Source: Dehalococcoidia bacterium (GTDB taxonomy: Bacteria > Chloroflexota > Dehalococcoidia > Bin125). From it: a DNA stretch of 64,000 nt. Location: positions 13,340-77,339 of the forward strand of contig CAXXNO010000002.1 of the NCBI GenBank assembly GCA_963663235.2. Direction: 5' to 3'. A program made the position numbers and the translations under genes. Positions 34,892-56,093 of the stretch are shown here, piece by piece (the first letter of the stretch is position 1; every line of letters starts with the position of its first letter). The notes under the pieces were generated by a model. That model was not told the DNA's origin, did no database searches, and saw only the letters and a program-made list of their open reading frames with translations.

Positions 34892-36271
34892 GTGACCAAC
34901 CCGTATCGCACATTGCCCAGCGTCGATCGGCTGCTCCAGCACCCGGCAGTCGCGCGGCTGCGCGATCGCTACCCGAACGGCCGCCTCACGACCCACGCGC
35001 GCGCCGTGCTGGACCGGGCGCGGGCGTCGCTGGCAGCCTCCTCCGATGCCGACGGCGGCGCCGACCTGGAGGCCCTGGCGCAGGCAGTCGTCGCCAGTGT
35101 CGAAGGGGCGACGACGCCCTCGCTGCGACCGGTCCTCAACGCCACCGGCGTGATCCTGCACACGAACCTGGGGCGCGCGCCCTTGTCCGCGGCAGCCCTG
35201 GCCGCGATGGAGCGGGCGGGCCGGGGCTATTCCAACCTGGAGTTCGATCTCGCCGCCGGCAAGCGGGGCTCCCGTTTCGCCCATCTGACCGCGCTCCTGC
35301 GTGAGGCGACCGGCGCCGAGGCGGGGCTGGCCGTCAACAACAACGCCTCCGCGCTCCTGCTGGCGCTCTCCGCTCTGGCGGCGGACCGGGAGGTGATCGT
35401 GAGCCGGGGCCAGGCCGTGGAGATCGGGGGCGGCTTTCGCATCCCGGACGTCCTGCGCCAGAGCGGCGCGACGCTGGTGGAGGTCGGCACGACCAACCGG
35501 ACCCACGCCGACGACTACGGCGACGCCCTCAACCAGCGCACGGCGGCCATCCTGCGGGTGCACGCCAGCAACTTCAAGATCGTCGGCTTCACGGCGCAGC
35601 CCGCGCTGACCGAGCTGCGCCGGCTGGCGAGCGACGCCGGCGTGCTCCTCCTAGACGACCTGGGCAGCGGCTGTCTGCTGGACACCACCCGCTACGGGCT
35701 GGCGCCGGAGCCGCGCGTGCAGGAAAGCGTCGCCACCGGTGTGGACCTCACGATGTTCTCCGGCGACAAACTGCTGGGCGGGCCGCAGGCAGGCCTGATC
35801 GTCGGTCGCGCCGATCTCATTGAGCGCCTGCGCCGCCACCCCCTGGCGCGCGCGCTGCGCCCGGACAAGTCGGCTATCGCCGGCCTGGCCGCAACGCTGG
35901 CGCACTACCTCCATGATCAAGCGGAGACGGAGATCCCCGTGTGGCGGATGATCGCCGCGCCCGCCGACGGGCTGCGCGATCGAGCGGAGGCGTGGCGCAC
36001 GGCGATCGCGGCGGGCTCAGTAGAGCCGTCGCGATCGATGGTGGGAGGGGGATCGTTGCCGGACGAGAGCCTGCCGACGTTCGTCCTGGCCCTGAGAGAG
36101 CCGCGGACAGACGCCGGATCGCTGGCGGCGGCGCTGCGCGGCGGCGACCCACCGCTGATCGCGCGGGTGGAGCACGACGCCGTCCTGCTGGACCCGCGCA
36201 CCATCGACCCCAGCGAGGATGCCGCCGTCGTCACGGCGCTGCGGTCGGCCCTCTCGGGAGAGGGCCGCTAG
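34892..36271 (+). CDS. selA: L-seryl-tRNA(Sec) selenium transferase
   Basis: LPSVD, NATGVILHTNLGRA, VNNNA, EIGGGFRIPD, EVGTTNRT, FSGDKLLGGPQAG. Confidence 0.97.
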   Translation: MTNPYRTLPSVDRLLQHPAVARLRDRYPNGRLTTHARAVLDRARASLAASSDADGGADLEALAQAVVASVEGATTPSLRPVLNATGVILHTNLGRAPLSAAALAAMERAGRGYSNLEFDLAAGKRGSRFAHLTALLREATGAEAGLAVNNNASALLLALSALAADREVIVSRGQAVEIGGGFRIPDVLRQSGATLVEVGTTNRTHADDYGDALNQRTAAILRVHASNFKIVGFTAQPALTELRRLASDAGVLLLDDLGSGCLLDTTRYGLAPEPRVQESVATGVDLTMFSGDKLLGGPQAGLIVGRADLIERLRRHPLARALRPDKSAIAGLAATLAHYLHDQAETEIPVWRMIAAPADGLRDRAEAWRTAIAAGSVEPSRSMVGGGSLPDESLPTFVLALREPRTDAGSLAAALRGGDPPLIARVEHDAVLLDPRTIDPSEDAAVVTALRSALSGEGR

Positions 36272-50255: not shown

Positions 50256-51545
50256 GTGCCCCGAGTGCTGCTCCTCATCCCCAGCGCCAACTACCGCGCG
50301 CCGGACTTCATGCGCGCCGCGGCGGCACTGGACGTCGAGGTGGTGGTGGGGACCGACAACGAGCCGCCGCTGGCCGCCCTCGCTCCCGGGCACATGCTCC
50401 AGGTCGACTACCGCGAGTCGGAGAGCGGCCCGCAGCAGATCGCCGACTTCGCCCGCGAGCACCCGCTGGACGCCATCGTCGCCGTGGACGACCAGGGCAC
50501 GACCCTGGCGGCCCGCGCATCGCGCTGGCTGGGGCTGCCCCACAACTCGCCGGCGGCCGTGCAGGCGACGCGGAACAAGTACGACCTGCGGAAGCGCCTG
50601 AGCACGGCGGGCATCGCGAGTCCTCCGTTTCTGCTCGCCTCGACCCGCGACGACCCCGCCCGCATCGCCGCCCGGATTCCGTTCCCCTGCGTCGTCAAGC
50701 CGCTCTCCCTGGCCGGCGGCCGCGGCGTGATCCGGGCCGACGACGCCGAGTCGTTCGCGGCCGCCTTCGCGCGCCTGGCCGCCCTGCTCACCAACCCGGC
50801 CGTGGCGGACGAGTGCGGCGACACGGCGGGGCGGATCCTGGTGGAGGGCTACATCCCCGGCGTCGAGGTATCGCTGGAGGGGCTGATCGACGACGGCCAC
50901 CTGCACGTCCTCGCCCTCTTCGACAAGCCGGACCCCCTGGAGGGGCCGTTCTTTGAGGAGACGATCTACGTCACGCCGTCGCGCCTGCCCGCGGAAGAGC
51001 AGCACGCGATTGCGGCCTGCGCAGAGGCCGCCGCCCACGCCCTGGGCCTGACCGCCGGCCCCATCCACGCCGAGATGCGGATCAACAGCGACGGCGCCTG
51101 GCCTATCGACATCGCCGCCCGGACGATCGGCGGGCTGTGTTCGCGCACGCTACGCTTCGGCACGGGCATGTCGCTGGAGGAACTGGTGTTGCGGCAAGCC
51201 GTCGGCGCGGCGGTTCCCTCCTACCAGCGCCAGGGAGGCGCCGCCGGCGTGATGATGATCCCCATCCCCGCCGCCGGCACGCTGGAAGCGGTCCAGGGGC
51301 TGGACGAGGCGCGCGCGCTGCCCGCGATCGAGGACGTGACGATCACCATCCCTCGATGCCGCCCGCTGGTCCCGCTGCCCGAGGGGGGTGAGTACCTGGG
51401 CTTTATCTTCGCCCGCGCCGAGACGCCGGAAGAAGTGGAGGCGGCGCTGCGCCGGGCGCACGCGGCGATCGAGTTCGAGATCACGCCAGCGAAAGTCGTG
51501 AACGGCCGCGAGCGGCCTGTCGGGGGCTCGCCGCGGCGGAGGTAA
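50256..51545 (+). CDS. ATP-grasp domain protein
   Basis: [36 protein letters not shown]. Confidence 0.9.
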
Positions 51546-51558
51546 CGGAGGTCTGACC

Positions 51559-51843
51559 ATGGCGCTCTTCGTCGTCCAGCACAAGCACGATCCCGCCACT
51601 TGCCCCGCGAGGGACAAGACCATGGGGCCGCAACTGCTCCAGATCATCGCCGGCGCGCCGCAGGCGGGCGTGACCATCCAGGCGGAGGCCATAGTCGACG
51701 GCGGCCACGAGCTGAACATGATCGTCGAGGCCGCCGACGCGCAGAGCGTGCGTCGATTCATGGCCCCGTTCGCCCAGATGGGCACGGTCAGCGTCCGCGG
51801 CGCCTCCCTCTGCGAGAGGGTCGTCGAGCGCGGCTCTTGCTAG
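51559..51843 (+). CDS. Small hypothetical protein with HxHxxxxCP motif (ferredoxin-like fold suspected)
   Basis: GGAGG SD; MALFVVQHKHDPATCP...LCERVVERGSC; follows the ATP-grasp gene directly. Confidence 0.8.
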   Translation: MALFVVQHKHDPATCPARDKTMGPQLLQIIAGAPQAGVTIQAEAIVDGGHELNMIVEAADAQSVRRFMAPFAQMGTVSVRGASLCERVVERGSC

Positions 51844-51912
51844 ACCGTTAGCGCTTTTTCCAGAGGAGCCAACTGCTCCTCGGTGGGCTCCGCTCAGCAG
51901 AACCACGCTTCC
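51840..51912. repeat. att-like direct repeat copy 1 (displaced 3' end of the radical SAM selenoprotein gene)
   Basis: 71/73 identical to 54669-54741; minus strand encodes EAWFC-TGA-AEPTEEQLAPLEKALTV-TAG. Confidence 0.93.
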
Positions 51913-51937
51913 CGGCTCCAGATAGGCCACAGGCGCG

Positions 51938-51957
51938 TGTAGCCAAGGTGTCGCCAA
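51938..51957 (+). other. Putative integrase arm-type sites (left)
   Basis: TGTAGCCAA (51938-46) and TGTCGCCAA (51949-57). Confidence 0.6.
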
Positions 51958-51992
51958 CTTCTCCCTTCCGGGGCGTCGGGAAGGAGCGCCCG

Positions 51993-52070
51993 ATGGCTCG
52001 ACGGGGACACGGCGAAGGGAGTCTCTACCAGCGAATCGCAGAGGCATTCGACAGGCTGGCAAGCGGCCAG
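51993..52070 (+). pseudogene. Tyrosine integrase remnant (N-terminal arm joined to a C-terminal-like tail)
   Basis: AAGGAG SD then MARRGHGEGSLYQR (typical integrase N-terminus), immediately followed by IAEAFDRLA; catalytic core absent. Confidence 0.7.
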
Positions 52071-52176
52071 CAAACAACCTCATTGGCGCGCTCCATCGCA
52101 CTGGACCTAACATGTCGGGCGCTACGAGAATTGGGCGCAGCGCAACCCCGAGTCACATGCAGCAAAGGAGGTCCAG

Positions 52177-52560
52177 ATGCCCAACACCCGAGAGGCCATC
52201 TCGGCGGCCAACGGAGCCCTCGCCGAGGCAATCCGTATGGGTGATGCCACCGGCTGCGCCGCCACCTACACCGCTGACGCTCGTGTCATGTTCCAGCACA
52301 CGCCTACCGCCGTCGGCCGCGATGCGATTCAGACCTTCTGGCAAGGCGTCATCGACATGGGCGCCAAGGATGCCCGCCTTGAAACCGACGAGCTCCTTGA
52401 CTTCGGTGACACGCAGGTTGAGCGAGGCCGGTACACCCTCGCAGTGCGTTCCGATGATGGTGAGGTGACAGACGAAGGGAAGTACATCGTCGTTTGGAAA
52501 CGGGATGGCGATGCCTGGAAGATTTGGTGGGACAGCTTCAATAGCGACCTTCCTGCGTAA
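52177..52560 (+). CDS. SnoaL/NTF2-like (DUF4440/YybH-like) protein
   Basis: AAAGGAGG SD; GDA...A..YT.DA, GRDAI..FW, GKYIVVWKR..DAWKI. Confidence 0.88.
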   Translation: MPNTREAISAANGALAEAIRMGDATGCAATYTADARVMFQHTPTAVGRDAIQTFWQGVIDMGAKDARLETDELLDFGDTQVERGRYTLAVRSDDGEVTDEGKYIVVWKRDGDAWKIWWDSFNSDLPA

Positions 52561-52619
52561 CAGGCCCCTGGGACCATGTTCTTCGGTGAACGGTCTCGAC
52601 GCGAAGGGGATGGGAACAA

Positions 52620-52729
52620 GGGTGGCGCACGGAACATTCGCAGGGCCGATGGACGTCTACACCTACTGCGTCCAGGGCGGCGACCAGCGAATTGCGGACG
52701 CCTTTGACAGCTTGGCGAAAGATGGCTAA
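52620..52729 (+). pseudogene. Second tyrosine integrase C-terminal remnant
   Basis: AHGTFAGPMDVYTYCVQGGDQRIADAFDSLAKDG* resembles the box II/catalytic Tyr tail; 27/34 nt match to 52027-52060. Confidence 0.55.
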
Positions 52730-52855
52730 TTGAGGCTTGTCATCGGCCAATGATGAGTGCCGAGCTCGCGCGGGTGCGCTCCACGCTGCGATGATCTGCC
52801 GGTAGCAACGGTTCGTCTCCGGCCTTGAGATTCGGGTACATCTCGCTGCACCATG

Positions 52856-52906
52856 GCGCGAGGCGCCCGCGGCGTCGGCGCGTGGTCTAGGGCGGTGGGG
52901 CCCCGC
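52856..52906. repeat. 51-bp direct repeat copy 1 flanking the beta-helix gene
   Basis: 49/51 identical to 54462-54512. Confidence 0.9.
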
Positions 52907-53086
52907 TGGAGAAATTCCTCCACGCTTGGCAACGGGACCGTGGCGTCGGCCGGCGGCCGGCGGCCGGCGTCCCGAGTGAGCCTTGCTGGGCTGGCCTGCG
53001 CGCAATACGCTGCATCGCCTCTCGATTGGGAGAGGCGGCATCGCCGTTGCGCGGCGAAGCGTGTGCGGCCGAGAAAGTAGGGAGCG

Positions 53087-54439
53087 ATGCGAAGGCTGAC
53101 GGTCCTGGCGACGCTGGCGCTGGTGGCCGGCGCGCTGCTGGTGCTGGAGGGCGGGGACGAGGCGGTTGCGGGTCACGTGGGCTGCGGCGACACGCTGACC
53201 AGCAGCACGACGCTGCGCGCCGACCTGGTGTGCGCCGGCACGGCGCTCACCATCGGCGCGGACGACATCACCTTGGACTGCCGGGGGCACAGCCTCACGG
53301 GCGACGGCACGGGCACCGGTGTCTTGTTGGACGGCCGGACCGGCGTCACGGTCAAGAACTGCGCCGCGACCGGCTTCAGGTTCGGCTTCCATCTGTCCGG
53401 GTCCGATGAGAACACCTTGGAGCGGAACGAGGCGCGCGGCAACCTGTGGGGCTTCGATCTCGTTGCGGCCTCCGACGGCAATACCCTGAAACGCAACGAG
53501 GCCCGCGACAACGTTGGTCTCGGCGGCGGTGTCGGCTTCAACGTTGACAGCTCCGATGACAACACACTGGAAAAGAACACGGCGAGGGAGAACGGCTTTG
53601 CAGGCTTCCGGCTCTTTGAGGCCGACGACAACACCCTGGAACGGAACGAGGCCACGGAGAACGGCGAGAGAGGCTTTCAGATTGGCGCATCCGACGACAA
53701 CACCCTGGAACGGAACGAGGCCAGGGAGAACGGCGAGCTTGGCTTCATTCTCGCCTTCTCCAGCCGGAACACCCTGAAGCGGAACGAGGCACGCGGCAAC
53801 GACGGGGCCGGCTTCGTTGTCTTCTCCTCGGACGACAACGCTCTGGTCAAGAACAAGTCCAAGGAGAACAGCTCCGACGGCTTTCGTCTCTCTTTTAGCG
53901 ATGCCAACACCCTGGAGCGGAACGAGGCGCGCGGCAACGACGGGGCCGGCTTCAATCTCGTCTTCTCGAACGACAACGTTCTGGTCAAGAACAAAGCCAA
54001 GGAGAACGGCACGGATGGCTTCTTTCTGCGCCGCGCCGACCGGAACACCTTGGAGCGGAACGAGGCGCGCGGCAACGGCGGGCACGGCTTCGTCCTCGAT
54101 GACAGTGCGGACCTCAACGTCCTAGTCAAGAACGAGGCCACGAAGAACGTCTTGGCGGGCTTCAGGCTTGAGGACTCCGGAGACAACACGCTGGAGAAGA
54201 ACACGGCCGAGGAGAACGGCGGAGACGGGTTCAAGACCGGGGGGACCTCAAGCCTCAACACCTTCACCGAGAACAAGGCCGAGGAGAACGATGGCTTCGG
54301 CTACGCGGACAGCACCACGGATAGCGGAACGGCCGGGACGGCCAACACCTACATCGACAACACCTGCGAGGATAACGAGGCTGGACCGTCGGACCCGCTC
54401 GGCCTGTGCGATGACGACGACGACGATGATGACGACTAG
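53087..54439 (+). CDS. Secreted right-handed parallel beta-helix (NosD/CASH-like) protein with poly-Asp tail
   Basis: Signal peptide; CGDTL...LDCRGH N-cap; many ~22-aa GF.L..SD.NTL..NEA..N repeats; ends in a run of Asp. Confidence 0.88.
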   Translation: MRRLTVLATLALVAGALLVLEGGDEAVAGHVGCGDTLTSSTTLRADLVCAGTALTIGADDITLDCRGHSLTGDGTGTGVLLDGRTGVTVKNCAATGFRFGFHLSGSDENTLERNEARGNLWGFDLVAASDGNTLKRNEARDNVGLGGGVGFNVDSSDDNTLEKNTARENGFAGFRLFEADDNTLERNEATENGERGFQIGASDDNTLERNEARENGELGFILAFSSRNTLKRNEARGNDGAGFVVFSSDDNALVKNKSKENSSDGFRLSFSDANTLERNEARGNDGAGFNLVFSNDNVLVKNKAKENGTDGFFLRRADRNTLERNEARGNGGHGFVLDDSADLNVLVKNEATKNVLAGFRLEDSGDNTLEKNTAEENGGDGFKTGGTSSLNTFTENKAEENDGFGYADSTTDSGTAGTANTYIDNTCEDNEAGPSDPLGLCDDDDDDDDD

Positions 54440-54461
54440 GGCGTGAACGGCCCGACGGGTT

Positions 54462-54512
54462 GCGCGAGGCACCCGCGGCGTCGGCGCGTGGTCTAGTGCG
54501 GTGGGGCCCCGC
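54462..54512. repeat. 51-bp direct repeat copy 2
   Basis: Matches 52856-52906. Confidence 0.9.
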
Positions 54513-54582
54513 GCATCGCTGCCTTAGAAGCCGAACCGCCCTATCGGGTCACCGCCAGCACAGCGGCAGGGGCTCGCCCGTC

Positions 54583-54601
54583 TGTCGCCAACCGTAGCCA
54601 A
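54583..54601 (+). other. Putative integrase arm-type sites (right)
   Basis: TGTCGCCAA (54583-91) and CGTAGCCAA (54593-601), same motif as the left pair. Confidence 0.6.
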
Positions 54602-54668
54602 CGTGTGGCGGGGCTCAGTCTGAGCGGTACGACGGCTCAGTGCCGGAAACCCCTACAAAACTAGGCCC

Positions 54669-54741
54669 CTATACCGTGAGCGCTTTTTCCAGAGGAGCCA
54701 ACTGCTCCTCGGTGGGCTCCGCTCAGCAGAACCACGCTTCC
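54669..54741. repeat. att-like direct repeat copy 2 (current 3' end of the radical SAM gene)
   Basis: 71/73 identical to 51840-51912; both differences are synonymous. Confidence 0.93.
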
Positions 54742-56093
54742 GTGAGGCCGGGCACGACGCCGGCGGGCTGTGGCGCGACACCCACCGGCGCGTCCAGGCC
54801 GGTCAGGGCCTGCATCGCCGCCCGCTTCACCTCCGCGAAGACGGCGACGTTGTCGCGCTCATCGCGGCGCGCCGCCGCCTCCACGATGCCCGTCACTTCG
54901 CGCTGGAGCGTCGCGACGCGCGGGTCGGGATTCGTCCAGGTGTAGGTCAGACCCGCCGCGTCATAAGGGCCCAACCGACCCTGCTCGCGCAGCGCCTCCA
55001 CCAGCGGCGATCCCGGCGGCAGCAGCAGCCTGAGCGCAAGTTGTACCGGCTGGACGTTCGCCACCAGCCCGTGGGTCTCGATGAACTCCAGGATCTCGAC
55101 GAAGCCGCGCACGTCCGTCCAGGGCATGAAGGGCAGCCAGGTCGGCCGAATCGCCAACCCAACGTCGTGCGCCAGGTCCAGGGCCCGCTCCATATCGGCG
55201 CGGGTGTGCCCCTTGTCCAGCAGCCGCAGCGTCTCGTCGTCGCACGACTCGAACGCCGAGGTGAGGAACAGCCCGCCGCTCTCGCGTAGCCGCGGCAGCG
55301 CCTGGGCGTGCTCGATCAGGTGCTCGACCTTGATCGTGGCATCGAAGGTCAGGTCCGGATACAGCCGGTGCATCTCCTCGACGATCCCCAACGATAGCGG
55401 CACCGCGTTGAAGAAGTCCGGATCGCCGAAGGTGATATGCCGCGCCCCCATCTGGACCAGTTGATCAACGTCGGCCAGCACGGTCTGCGAGCGCGCCAGG
55501 CGCAGGCGACCCTCGTACACCGGCGTGATGGGGCAGTGGCGGCAGCGGTGCGCGCAGCCCCGGCTCGCCTCCACGTAGCCCACGAGGCGCTGCTCCGCGC
55601 CCAGGTCGAGGCGGGCATAGTCGCAGAGCGGCGGCAGACCGCTGCGATCCGGCATCGGCAGCGCCTCCCGTTCGAACGCCGGCGCCGCCCCGACGCCCGT
55701 CGGCGGCTGGGGGCAGGCGGAGCCTGCGGCCAGCGCTCCCGCCAAGCGGCGCAGCCCCGGCTCGTACTCCCCACCCACCACGGAATCGGCGATCCCACCC
55801 GCCGTGAGGGAATCGTGCAGCAGGGACGCGTACAGCCCGTAGAAGCAGATGTGCGCGTCCGGGTTGATGCGCCGCACCTTCTCCGCCAGCGCGATCCCCA
55901 GCCGCGCGGCCGTGTGCATGGGGACGGAGATGCCGATCAGCTCCGCCTCGTTGAAGGCGGCGGACTCCGGGCTCTCGATAGCCAGGTCCAGGCAGTGGAC
56001 CGCGTGCCCCGCGCGGCGCAGCACGGCCGCGGGTGAGGCGAGGCCCAAGGGCTGATGACCCAACTCGTAAGTCGAGACGAGGAGGATGCGCAT
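54669..56093 (-). CDS. CUAEP-tail B12-binding/radical SAM selenoprotein (Sec at TGA 54723-54725), 474 aa
   Basis: B12-binding-like N-terminus (QPLGLA), RGCAHRCRHC CxxxCxxC, tail WFC-U-AEPTEEQL..., SECIS-like hairpin, selA in the same window. Confidence 0.9.
54692..54710 (-). promoter_or_regulatory. Bacterial SECIS-like hairpin
   Basis: mRNA GAGGAGC-AGUUG-GCUCCUC; apical loop starts 19 nt after the UGA and has GU at loop positions 2-3. Confidence 0.75.

Follow-up and report, generated by a model that had tools for sequence, protein, structure and literature searches.

A probable fossil of a tyrosine-integrase island in the selenocysteine-recoding 3' end of a radical SAM gene of a Dehalococcoidia bacterium

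Our analysis of a 64,000-nucleotide (nt) stretch of the genome of a Dehalococcoidia bacterium, called here the window, suggests that the 3' end of a selenoprotein gene received a small element by site-specific integration, and that this element subsequently decayed. The target gene encodes a radical S-adenosylmethionine (SAM) protein with a CUAEP/CCAEP tail, in which an in-frame UGA specifies selenocysteine (Sec, U), and the element lies between two copies of the piece of this gene that holds the Sec codon, a hairpin and the stop codon. We give a probability of about 0.85 to the reading that this is an island inserted by a tyrosine integrase. We regard it as real, as a fossil, as the only example found, and as a new target for the known strategy of replacing 3' ends, the novelty being what the replaced piece contains, namely a Sec codon plus its cis signal. 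The window lies on contig C2 of the source genome (G000; 2,754,989 bases in 14 contigs). The features that delimit the island, with attL and attR for its putative left and right attachment (att) sites, are the following, lengths of proteins and of open reading frames (ORFs) being given in amino acids (aa).

54669..56093, minus strand: gene of the CUAEP/CCAEP-tail radical SAM selenoprotein, 474 aa with U457 (NF040546; cluster motif CAHRCRHC)
54669..54741, minus strand: attR, the tail joined to the live gene; stop 54669-54671, hairpin 54692-54710, Sec codon 54723-54725
51840..51912, minus strand: attL, the displaced copy of the selenoprotein-gene tail; stop 51840-51842, hairpin 51863-51881, UGA 51894-51896
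51559..51843, plus strand: DUF3303 ORF, 94 aa, host-side neighbour of attL (PF11746, E 2.5e-5)

The two tails form a direct repeat of 73 nt, at 51840-51912 and 54669-54741, with 71 of the 73 positions identical (97%) and starts 2829 nt apart, as found both by a repeat search and by pairwise alignment. When the copies are aligned with 40-80 nt of flanking DNA, their likeness ends sharply at both borders, and in the whole genome the 73-mer is fully matched at these two places only (E 3.7e-32 and 1.9e-29), the next-best match being 18 nt long. Read on the minus strand with TGA as U, both copies encode EAWFC-U-AEPTEEQLAPLEKALTV-stop, the UGA standing between C and AEPTEEQLAPLEKALTV. The block runs from 16 nt before the UGA, across the hairpin and the last 17 codons, to exactly the stop codon. 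Its two differences, CTA/CTC (Leu) and GTC/GTA (Val), are both synonymous and sit in the stop-proximal 10 nt, the remaining 63 nt (51850-51912) being identical. No gene body lies upstream of the left copy, where tblastn finds the tail alone, and its stop (the complement of 51840-51842) overlaps the TAG (51841-51843) of the convergent DUF3303 ORF within a CTAG. An earlier reading of the same DNA, made from its letters only (the sequence-only reading), had described a repeat of this length, identity and spacing, a complete EAWFC-UGA tail through to the stop in each copy, two synonymous mismatches and the CTAG overlap with a convergent neighbour, and search, alignment and translation bear out each of these points. 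It had also taken the left copy for the displaced native end, which agrees with our assignment: attL and attR are both hybrids, and because both differences lie in the stop-proximal 10 nt, only these can be assigned, to the host in the left copy and to the element in the right one.

The target gene is a full member of its protein family. At 584.9 bits (cut-off 500), residues 3-466 align with positions 1-467 of the 468 in the NF040546 profile, with the tail aligned up to the profile end; the protein has B12-binding and radical SAM domains and the CU-AEP motif, the gene has the Nfu-like/radical SAM/ATP-grasp neighbourhood, and the protein itself shows no difference from the family. Orthologs in 35 of the 36 other genomes sampled from the bacterium's taxonomic family match at E 1e-50 or better, and most carry one in-frame TGA inside the match; Cys replaces U in the ortholog of G046, and CCAEP is seen at locus L011. 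The NF040546 family is called uncharacterised in the one paper found to name it, a preprint (bioRxiv 10.1101/2022.07.06.499078). Across many phyla the CUAEP radical SAM gene is accompanied by an ATP-grasp gene (L-amino-acid-ligase-like) and by Nfu/IscA-type genes; among the genome-contig stretches listed, ATP-grasp genes neighbour it in 43 of 108 and Nfu genes in 35 of 108 (7 of 30 and 23 of 30, respectively, at loci of the taxonomic family). This company hints at a shared pathway.

The duplicated piece contains a hairpin that begins 12 nt after the UGA, with a 7-base-pair stem and the loop AGUUG. We aligned without gaps 138 distinct tails from the taxonomic family and from many other phyla and compared them with 500 shuffles. 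Hairpin cells are paired in 82.8% of cases, against 66.7% in shuffles, and 198 cells are changed on both sides, against 83.8, with 6 of the 7 pairs affected. None of the 500 shuffles reached the observed value of pairing or of double changes, and sliding the 3' strand by 1-3 columns lowers pairing to 35-59%. The hairpin after the UGA is under selection and is kept by compensatory changes. We infer that it is a SelB-binding element of the Sec insertion sequence (SECIS) type; an Rfam search of the tail region returned no covering family, the sole match being a chance microRNA (E 0.61). The genome carries a tRNA-Sec (transfer RNA, found by aragorn), SelB (359.1 bits, cut-off 242.25), SelA (551.8 bits, cut-off 267.9), which is encoded inside the window, and SelD (357.8 bits, cut-off 125). 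The SelA gene, at 34904-36244 of the window (C2:48243-49583), lies about 18 kb from the selenoprotein gene, and SelD, on contig C4, holds one in-frame TGA in its own sequence. In the sequence-only reading the attachment site of the element carried a working Sec module. The block does hold a Sec codon, a covarying hairpin and a stop; this module presumably works, and the rebuilt gene would then still yield a selenoprotein.

The DNA between the repeats differs from its surroundings in composition, with a content of G plus C of 0.60-0.64 against 0.70-0.73 in both flanks, and it holds remains of tyrosine integrases together with two copies of a short motif near its ends.

51913..51992, plus strand: integrase-proximal arm (P'), a homologue of the spacer that separates tRNA-Arg(CCG) from an integrase start on contig C9; its motif GTAGCCAAGGTGT occupies 51939-51951
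51993..52066, plus strand: integrase relic 1, MARRGHGEGSLYQR (codons 1-14) running in frame into a C-terminal QRIAEAFDRLAS (alignment with P0001)
52589..52729, plus strand: integrase relic 2, a tyrosine-integrase C-terminus of ~43 residues with the end ...MDVYTYCVQGGDQRIADAFDSLAKDG-stop (alignment with P0001)
54594..54606, plus strand: far-arm (P) motif GTAGCCAACGTGT, oriented like the motif at 51939 and separated from attR by 62 nt (genome-wide count)

Both relics were compared with P0001, a metagenomic tyrosine integrase of 371 aa with the domains PF14659 and PF00589, which is their closest intact relative, with identity measured on the short stretches that the relics retain. Relic 1 matches residues 1-14 of P0001 (12/14 at 51993-52034, E 3e-7) and residues 358-369 (11/12 at 52031-52066, E 3e-5), as when an integrase of this type loses about residues 15-357 internally. 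Relic 2 matches residues 326-368 (27/43 identical at 52589-52717, E 2e-16), and the tyrosine in its MDVY stands where we take the catalytic tyrosine of this integrase family usually to lie; it owes its identity to the alignment with P0001 alone. P0001 was also the best of the matches when the 41-aa ORF beside tRNA-Arg(CCG) on contig C9 was used as query against longer proteins, and all four matches were full-length integrases with PF14659 and PF00589.

The same genome seems to contain a sister island, at a gene for tRNA-Arg(CCG). On C9 this gene is followed by 79 nt and then by an ORF starting MRRRGHGEGSLYQR, and the spacer with the integrase start (C9:135027-135121) is 75% identical over 96 nt to positions 51938-52033 of the window; the first residues of relic 1 are identical to those of the C9 integrase at 13 of 14 positions. 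The motif GTAGCCAAN[GT]TGT (13 nt) occurs four times in the 2.75 Mb, both strands counted, where chance would give an estimated ~0.7, and its four places adjoin four att blocks: window 51939, which is 26 nt inside attL, window 54594, C9:135028, which is 20 nt past the tRNA-Arg block, and C2:485, which is ~100 nt before a second copy of tRNA-Arg(CCG) at the beginning of the contig that holds the window. An identical block of 84 nt is common to both copies of this tRNA gene (C9:134924-135007 and C2:587-670). On the C9 side, an ORF bearing HTH_21, probably a transposase of an insertion sequence, cuts the integrase, and a Toprim/DUF7146 gene (869-aa ORF) and a second integrase follow. We read the selenoprotein-tail island and the tRNA-Arg island as one type, with the motifs as arm-type sites on either side of a core, putatively bound by the integrase. 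As a separate matter, the tRNA-Arg island appears to span the end region of C9 and the start of C2, which would link these two contigs.

This resemblance bears on a different account of the insert, by which it came through illegitimate or homologous recombination, or through duplication followed by replacement, and the integrase pieces are unrelated debris. The absence of an active integrase, the ordinary cargo and a further pair of 51-nt repeats inside the insert, evidence of more rearrangements at the locus, would all suit such a history. It would leave without reason the position of the integrase start, 80 nt from the attL border in one island and 79 nt from the tRNA-Arg gene in the other, the common motif present in one orientation on both arms, and an identity block that ends exactly at the stop, as expected of a replacement tail. 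We consider this account very unlikely. The sequence-only reading had proposed an integrative element here, and the relics, the arm motif, the low G plus C content, the single tails of other genomes and the empty sites described below all support an insertion mediated by an integrase, presumably of the type now represented by the relics.

Site-specific integration would have proceeded as follows. The circular element would have carried, in this order, a far arm, the 73-nt block, a near arm and the integrase gene, and its own attachment site (attP) would have included a look-alike of the gene end, from 16 nt before the UGA through the stop. After an exchange inside the block, the gene body would have continued into the element's version of all the sequence beyond the crossover (now attR), and the host's old downstream tail would have been left stranded beside the integrase, at the far end of the island (now attL). 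Frame, Sec codon, hairpin and stop would all have been intact afterwards. Decay would then have removed residues ~15-357 of one integrase and spared only the last ~43 codons of a second, leaving a remnant of two cargo genes and the att arms. The element is a fossil, no longer mobile, because it has no intact integrase. A block that ends exactly at the stop codon is as expected if selection kept the coding part only, and the two differences, both synonymous, agree weakly, given their number, with a copy whose evolution was subject to the same coding constraint.

The crossover probably fell somewhere in the 63 identical nt (51850-51912), so the tail of the live gene would be at least partly derived from the element, with a share of the UGA and SECIS that depends on the crossover point. 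It could be argued that the island is just as described but that its tail copy is mere homology for landing: with a crossover close to the stop, the UGA and hairpin of the live gene would be wholly host DNA and nothing would have been rebuilt. Since the sole differences are in the last 10 nt, the exchange could sit just upstream of them. At 3'-end targets, however, the identity block usually extends between the point of crossover and the end of the gene, a logic that puts the exchange around the UGA, close to the integrase-proximal border (51880-51912). A block starting 16 nt before the UGA would otherwise be purposeless, and its likeness in register to the tRNA-Arg block is strongest around this border. 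We regard the landing-homology account as rather unlikely.

There are two candidate dyads for the exchange. One, centred at 51872, is the SECIS stem-loop; the other, imperfect and centred at 51895, surrounds the UGA (GTGGGCTCCGC-TCA-GCAGAACCAC) and adjoins the integrase-proximal border. The distance from the arm motif to the UGA is 44 nt, as it is to the D-loop of tRNA-Arg in the sister island. With the homologous arms as anchor, the two att blocks agree, ungapped, at 34 of 78 positions; for random windows of the genome the mean is 21-23 (standard deviation 3.9), a difference with P 0.001-0.004 in a comparison made post hoc. Over 95 positions, 43 are identical in register, against 17-35 in other registers. 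This likeness, noticed after the fact, is suggestive only. We tentatively propose, with the odds against us, that the integrase lineage switched from a tRNA gene to an mRNA region for Sec recoding that resembles a tRNA, and that the exchange took place inside the recoding module, at the UGA dyad or the SECIS stem-loop. If this were true, Sec-recoding signals shared across phyla would make a new class of chromosomal attachment sites (attB) beside the genes for tRNA and transfer-messenger RNA (tmRNA), and mobile elements would carry portable cassettes of UGA plus SECIS. Two other resemblances were set aside: the likeness of the attL junction to the T-arm or anticodon arm of tRNA-Arg was judged to be at chance level, and the motif spacings of the SECIS loop and the anticodon loop are unequal (67 and 62 nt).

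With a 43-aa tail as query, two copies were found in G000 alone among 65 genomes of the taxonomic family, one in 62 and none in 2. A degenerate WFCUAEPT pattern matched 40 of 401 genomes sampled from the class, again with G000 alone matching twice. In genome contigs, at least 114 stretches from other phyla have the tail; of the 114 listed, 113 continue into the radical SAM body and one, at a contig end, is not assessable. The sequence-only reading had named the presence of both copies in relatives, with neither an empty site nor integrase-bearing elements at the locus, as one observation that would speak against it; among these genomes a second tail was seen in G000 alone. Judged from gene order, the empty site exists in other genera. 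At L012, L013 and L014, from three genomes of the genus whose radical SAM gene is closest to that of G000 (~67% identity), a convergent ATP-grasp gene ends 64-131 nt after the radical SAM gene, and in nine stretches of other taxa this gap is -40 to 64 nt. In G000, the ATP-grasp gene ends 298 nt from the left tail copy and 3127 nt from the end of the live gene. A longer tail pattern picked out three metagenome contigs, all with ordinary genes of distant relatives (~55% identity in the radical SAM protein), and these were discarded.

Read data were available as Logan contigs (k=31). Six runs of two studies contain 90-97% of the sampled words of the window, and a run of a third study (X1) contains 13%; three of the six (X6, X7 and X11) and X1 were compared with the window. 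In X6, X7 and X11, separate contigs cover the left flank into the repeat (51400-51879), the insert into the repeat (ending at 54708) and the repeat into the gene body (54720-55200), with no other letter save one in the gene-body piece of X11. The pieces listed for X6 and X7, though not those for X11, include the fourth arm, which leads from the repeat into the insert (51883-52118). Depth is even along the stretch in the three runs, at about 5-6, 5-6 and 10-14. X1 has 51862-51988, 52263-52418 and 52632-52938, each without any other letter. The sequence-only reading had looked to the reads for a decision on whether the duplication was an artefact; the junction arms are found, at equal depth, and a simple duplication artefact is excluded by the read contigs. 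Some further joints listed among these contigs (with short sides and a likeness of 85) probably belong to other organisms.

These data also address a misjoin, in which the second tail and the 2.8 kb would come, for example, from another organism of the metagenome that shares the conserved tail. Many organisms of the same samples do have this tail, depth rises to 170-500 in the two repeat bins against ~5-14 elsewhere, short-word contigs break within the repeat, and the genome is in 14 contigs. Set against this are the distinct junction arms, at equal depth in runs of two studies and with pieces in a third, and the two differences between the copies, each tied to its own flank. Both arms share with the ends of the tRNA-Arg island a motif that the genome has nowhere else, which a chance misjoin would not yield. 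Even an empty attB together with a free circle would mean that an element carrying the tail exists. We hold an assembly artefact to be extremely improbable.

Several results weigh against a decayed, site-specific island. The island has no intact integrase, and PF00589 matches nothing at C2:65139-68139. Pfam by itself recognises neither relic, and relic 2 gave only matches of E > 0.03, none significant, in the 65 genomes of the taxonomic family. The arm motif was defined post hoc, from alignments already seen, with the genome-wide count as its control. Empty sites come from other genera only, with radical SAM identities of ~67% or less, and the DUF3303 ORF was not detected at E 1e-3 at those loci. 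The scans of viral, metagenome and phylum-genome DNA gave no intact relative of the element and no attP: a tail with a divergent integrase start was found in none of the viral and none of the metagenome contigs, and the arm motif with an integrase start in no viral contig and in none of 400 other genomes of the phylum. Of what the sequence-only reading had proposed to look for in relatives, the empty sites were found, in other genera, and elements with intact integrases at this site were not found in these scans. Finally, the 31-mer contigs fit the integrated order and an attB with a circular attP alike, and because the k=31 pieces are the same for attL/attR as for attB/attP the linkage is that of the assembly itself.

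Other searches for relatives gave similar results. The tail pattern is absent from viral contigs, the C9 arm DNA has outside G000 only matches of chance size (26-32 nt) in the 65 genomes of the taxonomic family, and P0001 has in viral contigs only relatives of 25-30% identity. Among the 401 class genomes, 136 match P0001, all at 29-40% identity. Of the loci of these class integrases, 30 were examined: 22 are beside tRNA genes (21 of 29 when G296 is left out), and none has the tail pattern. Nine weak matches of relic 2 in genomes of the taxonomic family were inspected by eye and rejected, as they are unlike integrase ends.

It is textbook knowledge that genomic islands and prophages enter tRNA and tmRNA genes at the 3' end and bring a replacement fragment, as islands at selC, the gene of tRNA-Sec, do; the e14 element and phage 21 integrate in the same manner into the protein gene icd of E. 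coli, for which they supply a substitute end, so that icd remains functional. The island of the window resembles those at tRNA and tmRNA genes in having a tyrosine integrase by one att end, a repeat that restores the 3' part of the target, a highly conserved and hairpin-rich target, and a sister at tRNA-Arg(CCG) in the same genome. It differs from them in that the target is a protein-coding mRNA, in which the frame, the in-frame UGA and the SelB-type hairpin must persist. The integrase start here faces the att block, while most of the 30 class loci have the tRNA past the integrase 3' end. With e14 and phage 21 it shares an insertion within the coding 3' end and a substitute end with synonymous or near-synonymous differences; unlike it, icd has no recoding signal, and the present element is decayed and much smaller. 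The kind of integration is thus already known: the TIGER/Islander report (PMC12424338) places 43.4% of its roughly 1.75 million islands in protein-coding sequences. A text search of the literature, which did not cover island databases and supplements, found no publication on this integration target, some of its matches being about staphylococcal islands or eukaryotes. The sequence-only reading had likewise thought the target undescribed, a view that agrees with this search and is provisional to the same extent.

If our reading is right, a mobile element can carry a complete bacterial cassette for Sec recoding, and a recoding signal conserved in many phyla, as in the 138 distinct tails with their common hairpin, can act as a landing site. 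The sister island at tRNA-Arg, with its homologous arms and near-identical integrase start, would make a rare natural pair for the study of how integrases change targets. There is also a warning for annotation, as a second selenoprotein tail without a gene body can mark the border of an island.

The other features of the insert are its cargo genes and the 51-nt repeat mentioned above.

52177..52560, plus strand: cargo, DUF4440/SnoaL-like protein, 127 aa (PF14534, E 2.2e-14)
52856..52906: first copy of a 51-nt direct repeat (49/51) that flanks the beta-helix gene (repeat search)
53087..54439, plus strand: cargo, parallel beta-helix (NosD/PbH1-repeat) protein, 450 aa (PF13229, 1.1e-59; PF05048, 2.8e-57)
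54462..54512: second copy of the 51-nt direct repeat (repeat search)

The beta-helix protein has a poly-Asp C-terminus and a hydrophobic N-terminus, probably a signal peptide, so that it would be secreted. Two paralogues of its gene are found elsewhere in G000, at C11:128640-129664 and C4:476957-477122, with 75-84% DNA identity. The 51-nt repeat brackets this gene, has no further copy in the genome, and may be the trace of a nested insertion or a duplicated regulatory piece; the likeness of the C11 paralogue extends into the first 16 nt of the second repeat copy. Runs X6, X7 and X11 hold a second version of the region of the SnoaL-like gene (52115-52562), with 29 other letters and one gap over 448 nt; the contigs that carry it (640-1121 nt) run on into DNA unlike the window. 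It could belong to a related element in another strain or organism.

Elsewhere in the genome, another integrase is present in two copies (C9:140458-141854 and C12:55362-56707) with near-identical upstream DNA (one difference in the 280 nt shown). Their reading frames stop 100 and 21 codons from the start while the PF00589 domain still follows, as in frameshifts, pseudogenes or assembly errors. At C5:159277-159376, aragorn calls a tRNA-like gene of 100 nt, its type given as undetermined, with a two-base anticodon (ca).

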